A stretch of DNA of 64,000 nucleotides, taken from contig DJHM01000011.1 of NCBI GenBank assembly GCA_002433075.1, positions 216,522 through 280,521 of the forward strand. The letters run 5' to 3'. Positions 29,366-63,383 of the stretch are shown here, one piece after another. The position numbers were made by a program, and so were the translations under genes. This DNA is from Latescibacteria bacterium UBA6620 (GTDB lineage: Bacteria; Latescibacterota; UBA2968). Under the pieces are notes generated by a model. It was given only the letters and a program-made list of their open reading frames with translations. It searched no databases and was not told the origin of the DNA. Positions within the stretch are counted from its first letter, which is position 1. Every line of letters begins with the position of its first letter.

Positions 29366-29393
29366 CCTGAAGTTTGCCGGGTCACCCAAGCGT

Positions 29394-29409
29394 AGGGGTT
29401 TACACCCCT
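29394..29409 (+). terminator. GC-rich hairpin downstream of the desaturase gene (AGGGGT-ttac-ACCCCT)
   Basis: Perfect 6-bp stem with a 4-nt loop, 29 nt after the stop; no T-tract follows. Confidence 0.3.
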
Positions 29410-29569
29410 CCGGCGAAGGGTGGGATCTTCCCCCAAGCATGATCGGGCAGAGCAGATGCCCCCGTTGCAACCCGTAAGACCCCCATCCGCATATACGCCA
29501 GCTCGGTAACGGATCGCCCACGGAGACAATCTACGCCTCGATTGGGTAAAGCTTCCCGTACGAATTGTG

Positions 29570-29598
29570 TTGACATTCACCTGGGCATTCTGCATAGT
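29570..29598 (+). promoter_or_regulatory. sigma70-like promoter: TTGACA -17 bp- CATAGT
   Basis: Consensus -35 TTGACA (29570-29575), 17-bp spacer, -10-like CATAGT (29593-29598), inside an AT-rich stretch. Confidence 0.4.
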
Positions 29599-29609
29599 GT
29601 GCGCATCGA

Positions 29610-29629
29610 ATGTTTTATTAATAAAACAT
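29610..29629. promoter_or_regulatory. perfect 20-bp AT-rich palindrome (aTGTTTTATTAATAAAACAt), putative operator
   Basis: Each half is the exact reverse complement of the other. It sits 12-31 bp downstream of the -10, i.e. over the predicted transcription start. Confidence 0.45.
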
Positions 29630-30032
29630 ATGAACACCACATATTACATTTGGGCGGTCCAGTTGTCTCTTTGCTCTTCGGTCTTCGTGTTCAGGGCGGC
29701 CGAAATCATAACCAAGGTCATTTGTAACGATCCAGATGGGAGGATCTCCTGAGTGTTCGTGAGAACACCATTGCAGAACCTCCGGGCTATTCGTCACGGG
29801 GTTGCTCACTGCGACCGAAGACGACCATCCTTGCGGGCGCAAGTTCCCTACTGCTATTGCTCTCGCCCGATGGTGTCTACCTGTGGGCGTGCGTCACGGC
29901 TGTGACGTTGTCAATAATGCTCTCCGAGGCCTACAGCAAGAGACACGTGCTACCACCTGCCGAACACAGCTCGCTTCGAGCGCGGTGGCAGCATCACAAG
30001 AAAGCTTTTCCCATAGAAGAGGAGGAATCTGA

Positions 30033-30383
30033 GTGGAACCACTGTTCCTGTCTGAAAGGCAAGGCAAAAGACCCATGGGTGTCTATCTCTGCCACGCCAA
30101 GCGAATCCACGTCGTCTATGACTTCTTCGATGTCTGTCTCGGCCTGGAAGGGTTCAAGAAGCTGAGGGAAATGGTATCGAGCCTGCTGGTGGATCCCGGG
30201 TCCGCCTCCAGCTTCGCCCTGCACTTTGCCTGTGCAGGCATCTCCGTTCCCCTCGACGACCTCCTGACACTGAGAGGGGTCCTGGATGAAGCCATGGATC
30301 GCGTCGCCGAGCTCGAGCTGGAGGATGAAACACGGAGCGATCCACACGTCGGCAACGACTGGTATGAAGTCGGCACCAACTGA
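30033..30383 (+). CDS. hypothetical protein (lower-GC stretch)
   Basis: GTG start with a strong SD (GAGGAGG, 7-nt spacer). 116 aa; no recognisable family. Overlaps an alternative 102-aa ORF (29857..30165) that has one TM segment. Confidence 0.35.
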   Translation: MEPLFLSERQGKRPMGVYLCHAKRIHVVYDFFDVCLGLEGFKKLREMVSSLLVDPGSASSFALHFACAGISVPLDDLLTLRGVLDEAMDRVAELELEDETRSDPHVGNDWYEVGTN

Positions 30384-30460
30384 AACCCACTCACCCCTTC
30401 GGTTGACCGAGACGACTCAATCACACGCGATGAACCCATAGTACCTTTGAAAGAAGGCCG

Positions 30461-30796
30461 CCGTTGATTACGGTCGCGAACAGAATCTACGTACACCGCG
30501 ACCACGCAGAGGCGTTCGAGGAGCGGTTTAGCAACCGCGCACATCTCGTTGACGGAATGCCTGGCTTCATATCGAACCAGGTCTTGCGTCCCACGACGGA
30601 GGGGGACCCCTACGTCGTCTTCACGCTCTGGGAGTCCAAGGAAGATTTCGAAGGGTGGGTCAGTTCGGACGCATTCCGGAAAGGACACGCGAAGTCAGGA
30701 TCCCTCCCCAAGGGTGCATTCACCCACGAAAACAAGCTGGAGATCCACGAGGTGTTTCTCGACTCGACTCGCCGCCAGGAAGAGGCGCGTGCGTGA
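30461..30796 (+). CDS. ABM-domain (antibiotic-biosynthesis-monooxygenase-like) protein
   Basis: About 110 aa; MPGFISNQVLRP...DPYVVFTLWESKEDFEGWVSSDAFRKGH is typical of the ABM/IsdG-like ferredoxin-fold. Confidence 0.6.
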   Translation, partial: PLITVANRIYVHRDHAEAFEERFSNRAHLVDGMPGFISNQVLRPTTEGDPYVVFTLWESKEDFEGWVSSDAFRKGHAKSGSLPKGAFTHENKLEIHEVFLDSTRRQEEARA

Positions 30797-30807
30797 AATC
30801 GATCCGA

Positions 30808-30987
30808 ATGAGCCTTCTCTTTGCCTGCGTAGTGGGTCTGACCGCACCCGCGCAGCCCCAGGATCGCATACGGATCGTATCTATCGGTGGCGCGGTGACC
30901 GAAATCCTGTTCGCACTGGGCGCGGAATCAGACATCGTAGACTGCGATTCCACAAGCGATTACCCTTCAGGGAACTGCCAAACATAG
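30808..30987 (+). pseudogene. N-terminal fragment (59 aa) of a BtuF/FhuD-like periplasmic binding protein
   Basis: MSLLFACVVGLTAPAQPQDRIRIVSIGGAVTEILFALGAESDIVDCDSTSDYPSGNCQT* has a signal peptide plus the first strand/helix of a cluster-A SBP, then stops. The next gene has its own promoter and RBS. Confidence 0.45.
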
Positions 30988-31033
30988 TGCCCACCATTAC
31001 CTGATTGGTGTAGAATATAGAAAGGAGAGTTTC

Positions 31034-31612
31034 GTGAGTGTCAAAGTGACCACAAATCCTACGATCGATCTTCTACTTAAGCGTCGTTCGCTGGTCGTTG
31101 CCAACATGACCAATCCCGGGCCTTCAGTCGAAGAACTGAGGATAATTCTTCGATGCGCAACACGAGTGCCGGATCACGGCAAGCTGACCCCCTGGCGAAT
31201 TTCAGTCATCCAGGGAAACGCGAGGAAAGAAGTGGGTCAGATCTGGGGCGACACGTTCAGGGAGAAAAACCCGGATGCCACTGAGGAACAGATTCAGGCA
31301 GAATATGAGCGTCCGGCACGTGCTCCGGTGATGCTGGTCGTCAGTACTAAAATCGAGAGTGACAGGGTTCCCGAGTGGGAACAGATCCTGTCCGGTGCAG
31401 CAGTCTGTCAGAACACGTTGGTGGCAGCAACAGCTCTGGGATACCACGCCCAGTGGCTTTCGGAGTGGCCCAACTACGACGACGACGTCAAGCGGGAGAT
31501 GGGGCTGGCGCCCGAGGACCAGTTCCTAGGCTTCATCTACATTGGTACAGCCGAACGCCCCCCGGTGGAACGACCCAGACCTGAGCTATCCGACGTCGTC
31601 TCATACTGGTGA
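31034..31612 (+). CDS. nitroreductase-family protein
   Basis: 192 aa; GTG start after AAAGGAGAG, with a TAGAAT -10-like element upstream. Nitroreductase fold motifs (LLLKRRS, RVPDHGKLTPWR). Confidence 0.75.
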   Translation: MSVKVTTNPTIDLLLKRRSLVVANMTNPGPSVEELRIILRCATRVPDHGKLTPWRISVIQGNARKEVGQIWGDTFREKNPDATEEQIQAEYERPARAPVMLVVSTKIESDRVPEWEQILSGAAVCQNTLVAATALGYHAQWLSEWPNYDDDVKREMGLAPEDQFLGFIYIGTAERPPVERPRPELSDVVSYW

Positions 31613-44544: not shown

Positions 44545-46062
44545 CTACACCCCGTTCAATCCCAATCGCACCCGCTGTTCGGGAGGCGCTTTCAATCGGG
44601 CCAGCTCTTCCCGCAGTCTATCCTGCATTGCCTTGAGCTGGTCCGGCTGTTCTTCCACGAGGTTCACCAGTTCGTTCGGGTCGGCTCTCTTGTCGTGGAG
44701 CGAAGTCGGGTCCGGCCAGGTCCTGCCGTCCCCGACCGCTCGCCGACCCTCCTCATAGGGCCCGAGTTCGTAGCGAACGAATCGCGCAAGATGGTATCCG
44801 TACCAGTAGAGCGGCTGATTCTCCTCGGTCGGCGACTGATGAAGGGTCCACGTTCCGTCTGTGATGGACACGCTCTTGCCAAACATGCCCATCAGCGCGA
44901 CGTCTCGTGTCCGGGCAGTCGAATCTTCCAGAACAGGAAGCAGATCGATCCCGTGCAGGGGTCGCTCCGGCGGCATTTCGGGCAACGACCTGCCGACTGC
45001 CGACAAGACAGTGGGATAAATGTCTATCAGCTGGACCAATTGGTCACGCCGCTCGCCGTGTCCCATCTCCGGGTGGCAGACGATGAAAGGGATGTGCGCG
45101 CAGCCGTCATACTGGTGCGTGTTCAGCTTCCCCGTACGACCGTGATCTCCGTTCCAAGTTCCGTGATCGGTCGTGAAGATCAACAAGGTGTCTCGCCACA
45201 GGTCCAGCTCATCCATTTTGTCGAAGATCACGCCCAGCCATCGATCGAGAAAGACAACCTTGGCCGCATATCGGGCGCGCATGTTGTTGAACTGTTCATC
45301 GTTGTAGTGGTCGCGCCACGGCGCATACGGGGCTCCCGCACGCAGGCCTTCCACCGCATACCCCTTGGGATCGAACTGCTTCAGAATCGCCTCCGGCGGA
45401 TCCCAGGGCTCGTGAGGGTCGAAGATGTCGAGATGGAGGTAGAAGTCTTTATGTTCGCGGTTGCGCTGGAGCCAATCCGCAGCCTTGCTGCAAACCTGGG
45501 CGCAGAAGTAGTCCTCTTCGCTCTGGCGAATGAAGTGGACGTTGCGCCAATGACGTTCGTTTTTCCCCAGTCGATCGCCCTCCGGACACGGGAAGTCTAT
45601 CGGATCCGTGTAGAGCGCGTCGCTTTCGATGCCCCGCACGAATTCGAAACCCGTATAACCCATATGGTAGTTTCCCGAACCCTGTTCCCACAGATGGAAG
45701 TGGTCCGTCAGCAGGCAACTCACACGGTCGCCTTGCTCCATCATGAGTTGCACCGAGCGGTTGGGTGGCCCCGAGACCTGCCGCGGCAGGTCTCGATCGT
45801 CCTCTTCCAACGGTCCCCAGCCACGTTCGAGGAACTCGAGACGGCCGGTGTAGATGTCCCGGCGAGCGGGCATGCACGGAGTGGACCCGATGTAGGCGTT
45901 GTCGAAAACCGTACCGCGGTCGATCAGGCGATCCAGGTTGGGTGTCGGAACGGACCAGGACGGAGCCTCTTTGCTCCAGCATTGGTCGAGAGGTTTTCCG
46001 CCGTTGTAGGCGCCGACGTGGTCGCGACGCAAGGTGTCACAGAGAATGGTGATGACGTTCAT
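44545..46062 (-). CDS. sulfatase (formylglycine type), no signal peptide
   Basis: 505 aa; MNVITILCDTLRRDH, C-x-P-x-R (STPCMPARRDIYTG). Confidence 0.85.
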   Translation of the reverse strand: MNVITILCDTLRRDHVGAYNGGKPLDQCWSKEAPSWSVPTPNLDRLIDRGTVFDNAYIGSTPCMPARRDIYTGRLEFLERGWGPLEEDDRDLPRQVSGPPNRSVQLMMEQGDRVSCLLTDHFHLWEQGSGNYHMGYTGFEFVRGIESDALYTDPIDFPCPEGDRLGKNERHWRNVHFIRQSEEDYFCAQVCSKAADWLQRNREHKDFYLHLDIFDPHEPWDPPEAILKQFDPKGYAVEGLRAGAPYAPWRDHYNDEQFNNMRARYAAKVVFLDRWLGVIFDKMDELDLWRDTLLIFTTDHGTWNGDHGRTGKLNTHQYDGCAHIPFIVCHPEMGHGERRDQLVQLIDIYPTVLSAVGRSLPEMPPERPLHGIDLLPVLEDSTARTRDVALMGMFGKSVSITDGTWTLHQSPTEENQPLYWYGYHLARFVRYELGPYEEGRRAVGDGRTWPDPTSLHDKRADPNELVNLVEEQPDQLKAMQDRLREELARLKAPPEQRVRLGLNGV

Positions 46063-56223: not shown

Positions 56224-56417
56224 CTCCTACCTCCGAAGGAAAACGCCCAAACCCCTCATACAGGGGCCCAGGCGCGCGGCATACAGCTCAATCTCTGACC
56301 CAACGCTCCACCGTGGTTCATTCCACGTCGAATCGCCAGTTACGTCGGGTACGTGGTTGACTCAGAATATAGAGAAGTCCCCTACCAGGGGCACATCGCA
56401 TTTACCTGGAGATTAGA

Positions 56418-57128
56418 TCACTCAGTGGGTGCTATTGTCTGAGCTTGTACGATCTGACAGAACTCCTCCCAGCTCTTCACCTCCACGTCCGGGGCGACTC
56501 CCTCTGGATCGAATCCGTGACGGTTGTACCAGATGGCTACAAGGCCGGCGGATCTTGCGCTTTCGATGTCGTACTTCAGACTGTTCCCACAATACCAGGC
56601 CTGATCCGCAGGGATCCCCAGCTTCGCGAGCGCCACCTCCAGGATCAGAGGATGGGGTTTCCTTATCGCACGGTCAGCGCTTGAAAGGACGAACGAGAAG
56701 GCGTCACGTAGGCCGTGATTCTGGAGTTCCCATTCCAGAGCCGGCCCCTAGAAGGGATTGTTGCTGACCACGGCCATCTGGATCTTCATTCGCTTCAAAT
56801 CTTCGAGAACGCTCGCGATCCCCGGTTCGGAGCTGAAGCGGACCGCGCCCTTCCAGAACTCCAGTTCCATCTCTGAGAGTGAAATTCGAAACTGGATTCC
56901 GAGCAAATCGAACAGGGTCCAAAGAAACGTCTGGAACGGCAACTCGATCAGCCCATAGTGTTCCTCCAACTCGGCGCCCATCTGACTCGACGCAGCCTGG
57001 ACCTCCTCCGACGTGTGGGTGGAATCCGTAAAGCCAAGGAGCCTGGCATAGCCCTTTTCGGGATCGTAACGTCGATCTCCGAGAAGGGTACCCCCAAAAT
57101 CGAAAAGAATGGCAAGGGGTCGGTTCAT
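56418..57128 (-). pseudogene. HAD-superfamily hydrolase interrupted by an in-frame TAG
   Basis: Motif I LAILFDFGGTL and motif II VVSNNPF, then TAG (revcomp cta 56748-56750). The same frame continues GPALEWELQNHGLRDAFSFVLSSADRAIRKPHPLILEVALAKLGIPADQAWYCGNSLKYDIESARSAGL (motifs III/IV). Confidence 0.55.
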
Positions 57129-57384
57129 GCGGTTAATCCGTTGGAATCTTGAAATCGTGAAGGTTACAGCTCAAGAACGGTGAATTGCGAATGTGTGCAA
57201 ACTGAAAACCCGGATGATGCGAACGATCGACAGGCTCAGTCATCCATTCGATCCGATCCGATCGTTCCCCTTCACGCGGATCGTGCCATCGGCAGACCGG
57301 ACTTGCTTCGGAATATGAGAACGCCGTTTATTCCCCTGTTCGTTCGTATACAGTGACCTCCCGCTTCAATCATTACGACAGGAC

Positions 57385-58650
57385 TTGAATTCAACGATGA
57401 GCCGACACATGCAAGAAATCGCCGATGCCATGACGACGGCGGATCTCTGGAAAATGATGAGACGACGAGTTCCCCCGATCGTGTCCGAGTATTTCCGTGG
57501 TGGAGCAGACACGGAAACCACGCTTCGCGGGAACGTGCGTGCGTTCCAACAGTCCATGACCACGGCTTATGGCGCACTGAAATTCTCCTCCCTGGACACG
57601 CGCACCACAACCGTGGGCCACGATCTGGCCATCCCCTGGTTCATTACGCCAGTGGGAAGCCTTCGGACACTCTACCCGATGGGCGATGCGGTTGCCTCAC
57701 GCGTAGCCGGTGAGTTCGGGACCGTGATGGCCCAGTCGACCCTTTCGGGAACCCCGATGGAAGATGTGGCGGCGGCCTCAAAGGATCAGTGCTGGTACCA
57801 GCTCTACCTCTGCGGAGGTCGTGATACGGCATTACGGAGCATTGAGCGAGCCAGGAATGCGGGCTTCACCGCGCTCATTCTGACGATGGACACGGGCGTC
57901 TCCGGATTGAGGATTCTGCACGCCAAGATGAAACCCATGCAATCGATGGGTCCCTTCCGTGGCTTGAGTTTCGGTCAGAAGATCGTAAAAGCGTTCAGAA
58001 AACTGGCACTCGCCCCACAGATGCTATCCTGTCTGCCGTGGCTGATCGACTATTACCGGGACGGCGGGTTGATGGAGTTCGTGAACATCATCGATGACGA
58101 TGGCGAACCCATGCCCTACACGGATATCGGGACCCAGCTCGCGGCTTCAGCCGTGACGTGGGACGACCTTACGTGGATCAAGGAAGCCTGGGGGGACAAG
58201 CCGCTGATCGTAAAGGGCGTTCATTGCGCCTACGACGCCCGGAAGGCGGAGGAGATGGGAGCCTCCGGCGTGATCTGGTCGAACCACGGGGGTCGACAGC
58301 AGGATCGCGTGCCTCCGGTGCTTCATATCGTAGCCCAGGAAATGCCTCTCGTCGGGGACACGCAGCTGGACTTCATGATGGATGGCGGCATTCGGAACGG
58401 GACCGATATCCTGATCGCATTGTCCTACGGCCTGAAGGCAGTAGGCATCGGACGGGTGACGGCGGCAGGCATCGGCGCCGGAGGACACACCGGGCTTACG
58501 CGTGCATTCGAGATCCTGCACGAGGACCTCGATCGGGCAATGCGACTGGTCGGCGTGCAGAGCGTGGAGGAAATCCGCAGCCGCGGAGCGGAGATCCGGC
58601 GCGAGAGTCTTCTGCAAGGCGATGATCATCTTCCCCCATTCGTATTCTAG
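57385..58650 (+). CDS. FMN-dependent alpha-hydroxy-acid dehydrogenase/oxidase (LldD/glycolate-oxidase family)
   Basis: 421 aa; YQLY, SNHGGRQ, C-terminal FMN-binding GGIRNGTD. Confidence 0.85.
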   Translation: MNSTMSRHMQEIADAMTTADLWKMMRRRVPPIVSEYFRGGADTETTLRGNVRAFQQSMTTAYGALKFSSLDTRTTTVGHDLAIPWFITPVGSLRTLYPMGDAVASRVAGEFGTVMAQSTLSGTPMEDVAAASKDQCWYQLYLCGGRDTALRSIERARNAGFTALILTMDTGVSGLRILHAKMKPMQSMGPFRGLSFGQKIVKAFRKLALAPQMLSCLPWLIDYYRDGGLMEFVNIIDDDGEPMPYTDIGTQLAASAVTWDDLTWIKEAWGDKPLIVKGVHCAYDARKAEEMGASGVIWSNHGGRQQDRVPPVLHIVAQEMPLVGDTQLDFMMDGGIRNGTDILIALSYGLKAVGIGRVTAAGIGAGGHTGLTRAFEILHEDLDRAMRLVGVQSVEEIRSRGAEIRRESLLQGDDHLPPFVF

Positions 58651-59856: not shown

Positions 59857-60882
59857 ATGTTTCTACACAAGCTGGACTGGCAGCGGAATGTGATCGACGT
59901 AAAGGTCAATCACCGCGACGAGGCGCCCCGGGTGAACCAACCCGTGCTCTCCGCGATGACCACACGGCAGGATTGGTGCACGGTTCAGCTCTACAGCCCC
60001 GCCGTCGTCCGTGTGGATGGCACGTACCACATGTGGTACGTCGGCAACCCCATGGCCACCCGCGTTGACAACCTCTCACTGGGATACGCGGAATCCGTCG
60101 ACGGGCTCGTCTGGAACGAACACGAAAACAACCCGATTCTTACGCCCGCAGACCTGCCGTTCGGGGCATCCTGGCAAACACCCCGGGTACTGTTCGACGA
60201 GGCGCGAGGGCTGTTCAGGATGTGGTTCGTGTCGGGTGGGGTCGAGAACGACGATGAGGGCGCCCCGACTCTTCGTCGTCAGTTTGCCGGATATGCCGAG
60301 AGCGAGGATGGTCTTTCCTGGAAGATTCATCCCGAGCCTGTTTATCCGAGCGGTCGGGGGCCTTGCGTTCTGATAGAAGAAGAGGGCGGATACACGATGT
60401 GGATGAACTCCGCTCCAGAGCCTGACGACGAGTTTGCGCGGCTTGCGGCCAACATCTTCAGGTTCAGCTCCAGCGACGGCCTCGAATGGACACGGGATCC
60501 CGATCCTGTCGTCACAGCGGGCGGTCCGACACGGAGCAACGTTTATCCATTCGTGTTCAAGGATCGGGGTGACTATACGATGTGGTATACGTGTGCGGTC
60601 GAGGGTGGGCACTGTGAACTCTATTCCTCGACTTCTTCAGATGGCGTTACCTGGACTCACCATCGAGACGAGCCTTCCTTTCCCGCCACCCGGAACCCGG
60701 ACGACTTCGACGGCAGGTATACCTCGACGCCCTGCGTCCTCGACGACGGGGATCGGTATCTGCTCTACTATTCCGCACGAGATCCGGGGAACCTCTACGG
60801 GGCTGGTGATGGAACGCTGAAGGTGGATCGGATGGGGATTTATCGGCATATCGGAGTGGCCGTCTGTGAGAAAGCACAGTGA
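59857..60882 (+). CDS. GH-like beta-propeller protein with Asp-box-like SxDGxxW repeats
   Basis: 341 aa; SVDGLVW, SEDGLSW, SSDGLEW, SSDGVTW; related to 21297.. and 61818... Confidence 0.5.
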   Translation: MFLHKLDWQRNVIDVKVNHRDEAPRVNQPVLSAMTTRQDWCTVQLYSPAVVRVDGTYHMWYVGNPMATRVDNLSLGYAESVDGLVWNEHENNPILTPADLPFGASWQTPRVLFDEARGLFRMWFVSGGVENDDEGAPTLRRQFAGYAESEDGLSWKIHPEPVYPSGRGPCVLIEEEGGYTMWMNSAPEPDDEFARLAANIFRFSSSDGLEWTRDPDPVVTAGGPTRSNVYPFVFKDRGDYTMWYTCAVEGGHCELYSSTSSDGVTWTHHRDEPSFPATRNPDDFDGRYTSTPCVLDDGDRYLLYYSARDPGNLYGAGDGTLKVDRMGIYRHIGVAVCEKAQ

Positions 60883-61817: not shown

Positions 61818-63383
61818 TTGATACGCGCCGTCTTTCACGTCGAGTCCGGGGAGCGCCAACTCTTCCTGGACGACTACGGGATCGAGGAGATCCGCGATCT
61901 CCGACGCACTCTGCACCAGCCAGAGAAGAAAGGGGCCGTGATCGAACCGGAGGGCGACGAGCGAAGCATCCAGATTCGCTCCGCTCCCTCGTGGGACCCT
62001 GAAGCCAGACGCTACAAGCTGTGGTTCATGTGCGAGGGAAACATCGGGCTCGCCCAAAGCGTCGACGGCCTCAACTGGGAACGTCCCGCGCTGCGCGTGC
62101 GGGAACATAAAGGGTCGTTGGACAACTGCATGGTGGCGGGTCCGTGCGGCGAGCACGTCGTGTTCGATCCAACCGCCTCAGACGCATCGCAACGTTACAA
62201 GAGTCTCAAGCTGCGGGGATCGTCGGAACGCATGGTGAGCCCGATTGCCGACCACTGGAGGCTCATCCACAATCCGTGGCGGTTGGTCTATCCACGGAAT
62301 CACGTGCTGAACGATCCCCGTCAGTACCAGTTGAGCTGGGTGATCAACGTCTGCGAACGGCCCGATGACCCCGCCGACGAGCGTTTCGAGGGCGTGGGTC
62401 GCTTCCAGACCCAGGACATCTGTGTCAGTGCCGACGGGATCCATTGGCGCGTGCTGGACAACCCCGGGCTGCCTTCGGGCGACGAGGCCAACCTGAGTTA
62501 CGACCAGAAGGAAGGGATTTACATCGCCACCCTCAAACAAGGGGAGATGGGTCCCTACGGGCGCTCGATCTCCCTGTCGACGAGCAGGGATTTCATTCGA
62601 TGGAGCAATCCCGTGCTGGTGTTCCACGCGGATGCGGACGACCAGGCATTGAACCACGAAATCATCGCCGCACGGTACGACGACCCTACCCTGATCCACC
62701 CACCCCACAATGTCCCCGCAGAGTACTTCGTCGACGTCTACAACATGGGGGTCTTCAGATACGAGGGCGTCTACATCGGTCTTCCCGCCTTCTTCCACCA
62801 CACGGGTGACCGAAACGAAAACTCGGATGGTTTCCACCAGGTGCAGCTCACCTGCAGTCGCGATCTGCGCAGCTGGACGCGCCTGGGCGGACGGGAAGCG
62901 TTCATCGGGCCGTCGTCGATCGAGTCGGGGGCATATGACCTGAGCGGAATCATGCCACCGTCATCCGCGATTCGCAGGGAGGACGAGCTCTGGTTCTACT
63001 ACACGGGCACGAAATATCGCACTTCGCCAGAGGACGCCGATTGGAAGCGAACAGCCGCCTGCCTTGCCGTGTTGCGTCGAGATGGGTTCATGTCGCTCGA
63101 TGGCGGTCCTGACGGTGGCTCATTGTTGACCGAGCCGTTCCTGATGCCGACAACGTGGTTGTGCATGAACCTGGATGCGGGCGACGGATCGATTGAGGTG
63201 CAAGCGCTGGATGAATCGGGTGACGTCGTAGCCGAATCTGAGTCCCTCACCGGTGATGGACTACGCTCCACCGTGAAATGGAAGCGCGGAGACCTGATAC
63301 CCTTGACCCGTTCTCCGGGACGACTGCGGTTCAATGTGATAGATGCGTCGATCTATTCGTACTGGTTTGAGGAAGACAATTAG
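61818..63383 (+). CDS. GH-like beta-propeller protein with N-terminal 'RQLFLDD' motif
   Basis: 521 aa; SGERQLFLDDYGIEE, SVDGLNW, SADGIHW. Confidence 0.5.
   Translation: MIRAVFHVESGERQLFLDDYGIEEIRDLRRTLHQPEKKGAVIEPEGDERSIQIRSAPSWDPEARRYKLWFMCEGNIGLAQSVDGLNWERPALRVREHKGSLDNCMVAGPCGEHVVFDPTASDASQRYKSLKLRGSSERMVSPIADHWRLIHNPWRLVYPRNHVLNDPRQYQLSWVINVCERPDDPADERFEGVGRFQTQDICVSADGIHWRVLDNPGLPSGDEANLSYDQKEGIYIATLKQGEMGPYGRSISLSTSRDFIRWSNPVLVFHADADDQALNHEIIAARYDDPTLIHPPHNVPAEYFVDVYNMGVFRYEGVYIGLPAFFHHTGDRNENSDGFHQVQLTCSRDLRSWTRLGGREAFIGPSSIESGAYDLSGIMPPSSAIRREDELWFYYTGTKYRTSPEDADWKRTAACLAVLRRDGFMSLDGGPDGGSLLTEPFLMPTTWLCMNLDAGDGSIEVQALDESGDVVAESESLTGDGLRSTVKWKRGDLIPLTRSPGRLRFNVIDASIYSYWFEEDN

Follow-up and report, generated by a model that had tools for sequence, protein, structure and literature searches.

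An AT-rich dyad beside a conserved sigma-70-type promoter as a candidate operator of a predicted heme/iron operon in a Latescibacterota bacterium

Iron limitation shapes open-ocean microbial life, and the regulatory signals of its uncultured lineages are almost unknown. A contig of Latescibacteria bacterium UBA6620 contains a stretch of lowered GC content in which a consensus-like promoter is followed at once by a palindrome, and this raises the question of what the palindrome does and which genes it serves. The window (i.e. the whole 64,000-nucleotide stretch of DNA that was analysed) is considered here alongside sister strains and related loci on marine metagenome contigs. The features are as follows.

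29570-29598, forward strand: sigma-70-type promoter TTGACA-N17-CATAGT (-35 at 29570-29575, -10 at 29593-29598)
29599-29660, no strand: substitution hotspot around the dyad, from comparison with strain L111
29606-29633, no strand: AT-rich dyad, candidate operator or 5′ stem-loop; its core is a perfect 20-bp palindrome at 29610-29629
29630-29752, forward strand: 40-codon ORF, decayed remnant of the ORF1 family (58-62 aa in relatives, MTIRFVSFQAVL...)
29809-29960, forward strand: homologue of ORF2, a small single-pass membrane peptide in relatives (~41-48 aa there, core ...SSLLLLLSPDGVYLWACVTAVTLSIMLSEAY)
30033-30383, forward strand: ORF3, 116 aa, uncharacterised family, GTG start after GAGGAGG-N7
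30464-30796, forward strand: IsdG/HmoB/HmuQ-type heme-degrading monooxygenase with ABM fold (Pfam ABM, 7.7e-23)
30793-30987, forward strand: truncated N-terminal fragment (64 aa) of a periplasmic hemin-binding protein of HmuT/HutB type
31034-31612, forward strand: nitroreductase-family flavoprotein (Pfam Nitroreductase, 1.6e-21), last gene of the putative operon

The reading that we prefer, with a probability of roughly 0.4, is that the AT-rich stretch makes up the conserved promoter and leader region of a heme/iron operon, and that the dyad is the operator of a trans-acting and probably iron-responsive repressor. The promoter would fire ~5 nt upstream of the dyad, to which a repressor encoded elsewhere would bind. 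In iron-replete cells the bound repressor would block initiation or escape, and its release would let transcription proceed across what is left of ORF1 and ORF2 into ORF3 and the genes behind it, namely the IsdG-type heme oxygenase gene, the dead fragment of hmuT and the nitroreductase gene.

The promoter is present as the earlier note had described it. In a consensus scan it matches at 10 of 12 positions with a 17-nt spacer, and no other site in the 64 kb combines a perfect -35 hexamer with 17-nt spacing. Matches scoring at least 10/12 are not rarer than chance in the window (three observed, 2.6 expected). The counterpart is TTGACA-N17-TATTGT in the L005 lineage and TTGACT-N17-TATAAT in L014/L103, so that the hexamers, the 17-nt spacing and the position are kept in three lineages that otherwise cannot be aligned in the non-coding DNA around the promoter. 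Relative to L111, none of the 29 nucleotides of the promoter is substituted while the adjoining intergenic DNA is ~6% different, and among eight strain haplotypes the only promoter change is CATAGT to CATAAT. This is consistent with a near-consensus sigma-70 promoter with a predicted start at ~29605.

The palindrome ATGTTTTATTAATAAAACAT is perfect over 10 + 10 nucleotides, as had been claimed, and it lies downstream of the -10 element at a measured distance of 11 nt rather than the 12 bp given before. The dyad overlaps the start region, from ~+2 to +30 of the predicted transcript. The window holds three perfect palindromes with arms of at least 10 nt, this one included, and at least one such palindrome turned up in 9 of 100 block shuffles. 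There is no second copy of the palindrome in the 64-kb window with up to three mismatches allowed (none is expected). Neither was a further copy of the motif found in the window, with up to three mismatches or with variable spacing, or in ~90 kb of related loci. The nearest approach to it is a weak TGTTT-N8-AAACA in L104, where it precedes the gene of a substrate-binding protein. Matches to the palindrome in viral contigs were rejected as chance, the contigs having 19-34% GC.

At the homologous position the L005 element is TTTGTATTA-TTAC-TAATACAAA, and that of L014/L103 is GTTTTGTATTA...CTAAAACA. The dyad is found 6-11 nt past the -10 element in every lineage, with arms that are kept within lineages and a centre that is variable. 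The half-sites are alike across the lineages, conforming to T[G/T]TT[T/G]TATTA and TAA[A/T]ACA. A 12-mer, CGTTTTGTATTA, is identical in the L005 and L014 lineages where the untranslated regions are otherwise unalignable, which favours recognition of the sequence itself over mere pairing; the window half-site matches it at 8 of 10 positions. The promoter and the adjacent dyad are a real cis element, as the earlier note had proposed, kept in three diverged lineages and eight strain haplotypes. The half-sites stand N4 apart in the window, against N7 in L014/L103 and N10 in L005, and such unconserved spacing fits poorly with a single conserved dimeric regulator.

Which regulator might bind was approached from known sites and from neighbouring genes. 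Boxes for Fur, Zur, PerR, IdeR, Irr, RirA, CRP, FNR, LexA, NikR, IscR and ArgR, compared as consensus strings, gave no match beyond shuffles; in each of the five variants of the element the best scores are the same as the shuffle means (e.g. 9-11 of 19 for the Fur consensus, against a null of 10.1-10.5). Searches of the window by tblastn with Fur, Zur and IscR of E. coli and with DtxR of C. diphtheriae found no homologue. One Fur alignment at 62595-62942 was rejected as spurious, since a 521-aa gene on the opposite strand encloses it. Across the loci, the module has no regulator gene as a constant neighbour.

The main rival to the operator model places the function in the RNA: a stem-loop at the 5′ end would shield the mRNA from 5′-end-dependent decay or bind an RNA-binding factor, and thereby set expression of the operon. 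The predicted start would put the base of the hairpin 1-3 nt from the 5′ end in all lineages. Folded as RNA the window dyad has a free energy of -6.1 kcal/mol (z = -3.2) and those of the sister strains -6.6 to -13, so that all five window-lineage haplotypes fold, with z between -1.9 and -4.8; the haplotype with a U.U mismatch also has a 3-bp CAG/CUG extension of the stem. Moreover the arms of the window and L005 differ twice, in mirrored fashion on both sides, and are still complementary, with L014/L103 having a mixed, unpaired intermediate state. Yet the L005 fold has z = -1.7, and those of L014 and L103 (z = 0.06 and -0.5) are no better than shuffles. A covariation test on the strain haplotypes found no compensatory pairs (no change from one standard pair to another, and no pair altered on both sides), with a score equal to that of shuffles. 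The stems are all A-U or G-U, and no part of the region matches Rfam at the gathering threshold; the single match at E <= 1 was spurious, with 21 bits where the gathering score is 43. The identical 12-mer is unexpected for a purely structural element, and pairing of this kind can arise by template switching without selection. We regard a 5′ mRNA hairpin as possible, and would hold to it only tentatively.

Template switching bears equally on how the palindrome came to be perfect. It is so in the window strain only, the sister strains having one or two mismatches. The left arm ATGTTTTATTA is invariant across the eight haplotypes; three bases (A, C or G) occur at the central position 29621, and a single A/T polymorphism lies in the right arm. 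Compared with L111, 6 of 11 nucleotides are changed between the -10 element and the dyad and 7 of 31 just past it, against 1 of 20 within it and ~1% in the genes. Similarly, 10 of the ~25 polymorphic sites within the clade are packed into 58 nt. The perfect palindrome is one strain's sharpened form of a conserved, ancestrally imperfect element, and the strain-specific symmetry could plausibly have been produced by replication template switching on a quasi-palindrome, which would also account for the substitution hotspot around the dyad. Such switching is a documented mutational mechanism (PMC7202029, PMC8794818).

Taken to its conclusion, this would make the AT-rich quasi-palindrome in the initially transcribed sequence a template-switch hotspot, its symmetry a by-product, and the promoter the only functional part. 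The restriction of perfection to one strain, the hypervariable flanks, the lack of real symmetry in L014/L103 and the lack of other copies in the 64-kb window are all in keeping with this. It is hard to reconcile with a left arm that does not vary in eight haplotypes while 13 of 42 flanking positions do, with the 12-mer shared between lineages, and with the conserved placement relative to the -10 element. We consider such wholly neutral symmetry unlikely. It nevertheless urges caution, in that a perfect palindrome need not be a selected operator.

We turn to the genes that the promoter would serve. The 40-codon ORF starting at 29630 exists as earlier described. As a gene it is not conserved: four of the eight haplotypes (L111, L113, L114 and L116) have CTG in place of its ATG, and relative to L111, a strain that is 96.5% identical, 10 nucleotide differences change 7 of the 40 residues. 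Alignment with the relatives indicates that a ~57-nt deletion took the Shine-Dalgarno sequence and ATG of ORF1 in the window lineage, leaving the remnant. A profile search with ORF1 found two proteins only. The frame-1 translation of 29809-29960 aligns with a 48-aa ORF in L005 and a 41-aa ORF in L110. This ORF2 homologue has no canonical start, there being no ATG, GTG or TTG in frame upstream of 29857, and a 1-nt indel polymorphism at 29951 alters the frame of its tail among strains. ORFs 1-3 have no match in Pfam, NCBIfam, PHROGs or PADLOC, and a sequence search of the PDB found nothing significant.

ORF3 is a real gene. The Shine-Dalgarno sequence and GTG start noted earlier are present, there are homologues with 39-64% identity, and the absence of a Pfam family agrees with the previous description. 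The family is very small. A profile search of 1.84 billion representatives gave only 8 matches, so no deep alignment is possible; the profile found no relative in representative genomes, and a metagenome scan contributed one additional locus. The predicted fold is PUR/Whirly-like with a moderate resemblance (TM 0.49), and ORF3 has no sequence-profile similarity to the PUR families. On this model ORF3 may bind nucleic acid. Cys20, His26 and Cys35 are invariant, and could be ligands for a metal or heme.

These properties suggest two further schemes. ORF3 might bind the AT-rich dyad, which melts easily, whether in the form of single-stranded DNA, hairpin DNA or RNA, and so control its own promoter and the iron genes downstream. 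The fold that suggests this is a model of limited resemblance and lacks a profile link to PUR proteins, the invariant Cys and His residues could equally mean a metal or heme role, and L104 and L110 have an ORF3 paralogue with no such dyad upstream. Self-regulation of this kind therefore seems improbable. We attach equally little weight to a broader proposal, that the promoter, dyad and ORFs 1-3 form a portable, self-contained control module for iron starvation, with ORF3 recognizing the melted or hairpin dyad and perhaps sensing iron or heme through its Cys and His residues. Were it true, ORF3 would represent a small regulator of a novel type, one that takes the place of Fur or adds to it at such operons.

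Monooxygenase and nitroreductase genes follow on the same strand, as had been claimed. The best NCBIfam matches of the ABM protein are all heme oxygenases and all fall under their cut-offs. In the PDB it matches TT1380 (3e-35), HmoB, MhuD and IsdI (1e-15 to 1e-8) and also IsdG, and in the aligned sequences its Asn6, Trp65 and His75 correspond to the catalytic triad of IsdG. By fold, triad and similarity it is a predicted heme oxygenase of the IsdG family. The next gene is a fragment, residues 24-60 of which match the first ~50 residues of HutB (6.7e-6), HmuT, ShuT and PhuT (full chains ~255-283 aa); L001 and L111 likewise have it as a predicted gene of 64 aa. NtrA (a nitroreductase) and IruO are described as reductases for IsdG and IsdI in S. 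aureus. The gene beyond the nitroreductase is convergent. A nitroreductase orthologue directly follows the module in L014, L015, L104 and L110, and a scan of representative genomes found only distant homologues, with up to 73% identity (in a MAG labelled Gemmatimonadaceae). Co-transcription, which the operator model supposes, would not be universal; in the P0004 lineage ORF3 and the ABM gene are separated by 327 nt with strong hairpins.

The module (i.e. promoter, dyad and three small ORFs) is found again on marine metagenome contigs, in no fewer than three diverged lineages. What follows it in L005 is a MxcH-like TonB receptor of siderophore type; L102 also has a TonB receptor there, and in L104 and L110 it is found with a nitroreductase and a long-chain flavodoxin. 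That the module is followed by a TonB receptor, an IsdG/HmoB-type oxygenase or a nitroreductase with flavodoxin points to iron or heme starvation and not to a generic redox cassette. The "redox/stress cassette" of the earlier note is thus better read as a locus of heme/iron utilization, given also the triad and the HmuT/HutB fragment, and this iron theme is a prediction drawn entirely from gene content. Two other candidates were set aside. The substrate-binding protein of L104 was dropped as an FbpA-type iron binder and as iron evidence because its NCBIfam matches (SfuA/PhnS/ThiB-type) are all sub-threshold. A role for zinc and Zur, suggested by L28 and S4 genes adjoining the module in L104, was dropped since these look like ordinary, cysteine-free forms and may be the only copies, and since Zur boxes are unmatched.

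The remaining alternative is the original one: a redox/stress cassette of low GC, acquired horizontally and controlled by its own dimeric regulator. A GC trough does exist: the region picked out in the earlier note has 54.5% GC, in the lowest 1.2% of 841-nt windows, and 29476-29775 is the lowest 300-nt window in the 64 kb (48%). It is a dip from a mean of 59.5% rather than ~62%, and its strong part extends over ~400-500 nt of non-coding or decayed sequence rather than ~0.9 kb; other intergenic regions fall to 50-51%. In tetranucleotide distance 29366-31612 is in the top 2% of windows, but it is the non-coding sequence that accounts for this. The coding span (30033-31612) does not stand out, 18% of windows being as distant or more so, and GC3 values of 0.71 for ORF3, 0.74 for the ABM gene and 0.63 for the nitroreductase gene lie within the host range of 0.60-0.77. 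The k-mer check that had been suggested for a foreign origin thus finds the genes to be host-like in tetranucleotide usage. An excisionase-like HTH_17 gene lies upstream in the L005 lineage, but there are no mobility genes within ~10 kb on either side (in the L001 gene list) and no plasmid or phage matches for the segment. As the linkage of module and nitroreductase is also common to relatives, and the gene content indicates heme or iron rather than redox stress, horizontal acquisition of such a cassette is very improbable.

The promoter and control element of this locus are well footprinted and match none of the known metalloregulator boxes compared as consensus strings. The locus also offers, in ORF3, a tiny ocean-restricted family that is always beside genes of iron/heme acquisition and has a predicted fold of nucleic-acid-binding type, and a possible natural case of a quasi-palindrome perfected in different directions in sister lineages. 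If expression proves to be iron-dependent, metatranscriptomes of this group could be screened for iron stress with the module as marker.

Finally we compare the locus with known systems. At quasi-palindrome hotspots (E. coli thyA and the homogenization of inverted-repeat arms; PMC7202029, PMC8794818) multi-nucleotide substitutions cluster at or beside an imperfect inverted repeat, as they do here. Several of the present substitutions raise the complementarity of the arms, and independent lineages perfected the repeat in opposite directions. Unlike the thyA-type hotspots, the mechanism is deduced here from the patterns in five haplotypes and three lineages.

Like the stabilizing stem-loops of the ompA 5′ UTR type, the predicted hairpin begins a few nucleotides from the 5′ end of the transcript and its stability is kept across strain haplotypes. 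By contrast its stem is all A-U or G-U, it is unstable in L014/L103 and it lacks covariation support. When ORF3 is set beside PUR-domain and Whirly-like proteins such as Pur-alpha and the Bpur of Borrelia, its second repeat is shortened, and its conserved Cys and His residues are atypical of PUR.

As in the loci of IsdG/IsdI, HmoB, MhuD and HmuQ with their reductase partners (IruO, NtrA), an ABM protein bearing the triad adjoins a hemin-binding-protein gene and a nitroreductase. The locus departs from the IsdG/HmuQ type in that hmuT is cut to 64 codons, the transporter genes are gone and the operon is headed by three small ORFs of a sort not known from such loci.

The operator model is to be compared with Fur-type operators, as at the promoters of TonB receptors, isd/hmu genes and flavodoxins. 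The 19-bp Fur box and the 7-1-7 Fur/PerR/Zur boxes, as consensus strings, match the dyad no better than shuffles, the half-site spacing varies, and neither a Fur-family gene nor more sites are seen in the available DNA. In common with those operators, however, the locus has a strong sigma-70 promoter with an AT-rich dyad over the start, and the module precedes a heme oxygenase, a TonB-dependent receptor or a flavodoxin.

The locus in the window is genuine: a promoter with a control element, both conserved, that heads a putative iron/heme operon. The control element is of a familiar kind, but its motif has no assignment, and alongside it is a small uncharacterised protein family.

Features of the locus in the window
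29570-29575 and 29593-29598: -35 and -10 elements of the promoter TTGACA-N17-CATAGT (consensus scan, 10/12)
29610-29629: perfect 20-bp palindrome ATGTTTTATTAATAAAACAT, starting 11 nt past the -10
30033-30383: ORF3, 116 aa, intact in the window lineage
30793-30987: truncated gene (64 codons) for a HutB/HmuT-type hemin-binding protein of the periplasm, E 7e-6, overlapping the ABM stop codon and followed by the nitroreductase gene

Promoter and palindrome are as the earlier note described them, except that the gap to the -10 is 11 and not 12 nt. A promoter match of this grade is unremarkable in itself. The window has three 10/12 promoter matches where 2.6 are expected, and a palindrome with arms of at least 10 arises in 9 of 100 block shuffles, so that the case for function rests on conservation and not on the matches. 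No further copy of the palindrome occurs in the window even at three mismatches, and none is expected. Two more perfect palindromes with arms of at least 10 lie within long ORFs, at 45772-45795 (CGAGACCTGCCGCGGCAGGTCTCG) and 60022-60041 (ACGTACCACATGTGGTACGT); three per 64 kb exceeds the block-shuffle yield.

The drop in GC content is also real. The region has 54.5% GC (lowest 1.2% of equal-sized windows) and includes the lowest-GC 300-nt stretch of the 64 kb (29476-29775, 48%). The mean is 59.5%, however, not ~62%, and the deep trough spans ~400-500 nt and not 0.9 kb; elsewhere intergenic dips reach 50-51%. A low-GC stretch at 57101-57400 lies near a ZMP/ZTP riboswitch on the minus strand (56259-56353; 54 bits, gathering score 39). 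The proposal that the region was horizontally acquired finds no support in its coding content. GC3 values for ORF3 (0.71), the ABM gene (0.74) and the nitroreductase gene (0.63) fall inside the 0.60-0.77 span of the genes around them, mobility genes are absent for ~10 kb on both sides, neither plasmids nor phages give a match, and linkage of the module to the nitroreductase is common to relatives. Tetranucleotide usage likewise gives no sign of foreign origin in the coding part, where it is unremarkable; deviation is limited to the non-coding leader.

The window matches part of contig DEAC01000026.1 (MAG GCA_002346595.1, uncultured marine bacterium), and contigs identical or nearly identical to it are present in Tara and other ocean assemblies. 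In related marine loci the arrangement upstream of ORF3 is constant, comprising a sigma-70 promoter, an AT-rich dyad 6-11 nt further on, ORF1, ORF2 and ORF3. The non-coding DNA around promoter and dyad is otherwise unalignable between lineages.

The module and its neighbours in related marine loci (L and P numbers)
Promoter: TTGACA-N17-TATTGT in L005; TTGACT-N17-TATAAT in L014 and L103
ORF1: 58-62 aa in relatives, MTIRFVSFQAVL...
ORF2: ~41-48 aa in relatives, one membrane helix
Upstream: fatty-acid hydroxylase in the window; rpmB in L104; excisionase-like HTH_17 gene in L005
Downstream: MxcH-like TonB-dependent siderophore receptor in L005; TonB receptor in L102; IsdG/HmoB-type ABM protein in the window and P0004 lineages; nitroreductase, long-chain flavodoxin, rpsD, then an ORF3 paralogue in L104 and L110

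In L005 the HTH_17 gene (147-449) precedes the module promoter at a distance of ~300 nt, and ahead of the gene, at 20-60, is the inverted repeat GTGACAAA-N15-TTTGTCAC. In the P0004 lineage the 327 nt between ORF3 and the ABM gene (L097 505-831) contain two long GC-rich hairpins of terminator- or REP-like appearance. By the L001 gene list, window positions 20463-40800 hold at least six PhyH (phytanoyl-CoA dioxygenase) paralogues in ~20 kb, an unusual density; among them are a fatty-acid hydroxylase, a BNR-repeat protein and an ECF-type sigma factor gene.

On comparative grounds ORF3 is a real gene. Its homologues are 50-64% identical (39% for a paralogous branch) with a start position common to all, and between the window and the sister strain L111 (96.5% identical in DNA) it has three nucleotide changes and one amino-acid change. 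It has no match in Pfam, NCBIfam, PHROGs or PADLOC, as the earlier note expected, and the family is tiny, with eight representatives among 1.84 billion proteins. The 40-codon hydrophobic ORF, by contrast, is not conserved as a gene; ten nucleotide changes from L111 give seven amino-acid changes, and the start is CTG instead of ATG in four of eight haplotypes. A ~57-nt deletion in the window lineage cost ORF1 its Shine-Dalgarno sequence and ATG, and the 40-codon frame is the remnant, which a chance ATG directly next to the palindrome opens. The homologue of ORF2 retains the membrane core but lacks a canonical start codon, and a 1-nt insertion/deletion at 29951 makes the reading frame of its tail differ among strains.

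The AlphaFold2 model of ORF3, built on an eight-sequence alignment, is confident (pLDDT 81, pTM 0.77) and has four strands, a helix, two strands, a helix and a final strand. The modelled fold is a lead to single-stranded nucleic-acid binding and not a family assignment. ORF3 might act autoregulatorily on an easily melted dyad, though we consider this quite improbable. For the invariant Cys20, His26 and Cys35, together with several aromatic residues, metal or heme binding could equally be the role. In L104 (9520-9867) and L110 (2926-3273) the second, diverged paralogue (39% identity) lies a few genes downstream from ORF3, beyond nitroreductase, flavodoxin and rpsD. Its neighbours are ABC-transporter genes, in L104 one for a substrate-binding protein and in L110 the C-terminal portion of an ABC ATPase. 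A ~45-nt tandem direct repeat, ...AAAGAGCAGTT[A/G]TAG[T/C]ATGCCTGCCTTGGTTCCTTCCC..., follows the paralogue at L110 3274-3530.

Among eight haplotypes of the window lineage the promoter shows a single change, an improvement of the -10. The dyad does not vary in its left arm (ATGTTTTATTA); its centre can be A, C or G, and in the right arm a pair is lost through one A/T polymorphism. Between lineages the half-sites remain recognisably the same, T[G/T]TT[T/G]TATTA on the left and TAA[A/T]ACA on the right, but their spacing is N4, N7 and N10 in the window, L014/L103 and L005 respectively. We tentatively favour an operator, at a probability of roughly 0.4. The dyad overlaps the start region, its arms are conserved with the centre free to vary, and a near-consensus promoter is typical of repressed promoters; the 12-mer CGTTTTGTATTA, identical in L005 and L014, points to conservation at the level of sequence. 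Against this, half-site spacing is not constant, there are no other dyad copies in the window or ~90 kb of related loci, the consensus strings of known regulator boxes that were compared give no match, and neither the gene list nor tblastn of the window reveals a regulator gene nearby. Upstream of an SfuA/PhnS-type substrate-binding-protein gene, L104 10010-10055 contains the direct repeat TTGGCTAAC twice, plus TGTTT-N8-AAACA. The latter has GAATGTTT-N7-AAAACA in common with the window palindrome, and may be a second site or a coincidence.

The dyad could instead form a 5′ RNA hairpin, a possible but doubtful reading that we rank second. Only 1-3 nt would separate its base from the predicted 5′ end, and the predicted hairpin is stable in all window-lineage haplotypes (-6.1 to -13 kcal/mol). 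However, it is not stable in L014/L103, population haplotypes show no compensatory changes, and the hairpin has no Rfam family match.

The surroundings of the dyad are hypervariable. Compared with L111, 6 of 11 nt before it and 7 of 31 after it differ, against ~6% in other intergenic DNA and ~1% in genes; thus in 29599-29660, 13 of 42 flanking positions differ versus 1 of 20 inside the dyad. Ten of the ~25 polymorphic sites within the clade are packed into 58 nt around it. Among the strains of the window lineage only the window strain has a perfect palindrome; in others the pairing is instead lengthened outward (CAG...CTG, GCA...TGC). In both the window and L005 the arms are perfect, and the two sets of arms differ at two mirrored positions. 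L014/L103 combine the left arm of one with the other's right arm, and their folding is no stronger than that of shuffled sequence. Such a pattern would be expected of an imperfect ancestral quasi-palindrome that was surrounded by a mutation hotspot and homogenised in opposite directions. Replication template switching yields a pattern of this kind (PMC7202029, PMC8794818, PMC13100816), and the hotspot is compatible with it; selection for pairing is the alternative. That the dyad is a neutral by-product, the reading we rank third, seems unlikely. The locus has an instructive quasi-palindrome history.

The window ABM protein has the IsdG triad (Asn6, Trp65 and His75), and its best solved relatives are TT1380, HmoB, MhuD and IsdI/G. 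The remaining heme ABC transporter genes are absent, so a heme-uptake operon appears decayed or rearranged in the window lineage; the truncated hmuT points to local rearrangement rather than to a foreign origin. Classical iron-starvation functions include all of the siderophore receptor, the flavodoxin and the heme oxygenase, the last of which has a possible flavin reductase partner. The cassette therefore reads as one for heme/iron utilisation and less as one for the general redox/stress role proposed earlier. In S. aureus, IruO and the nitroreductase NtrA provide a precedent as reductases for IsdG/IsdI.
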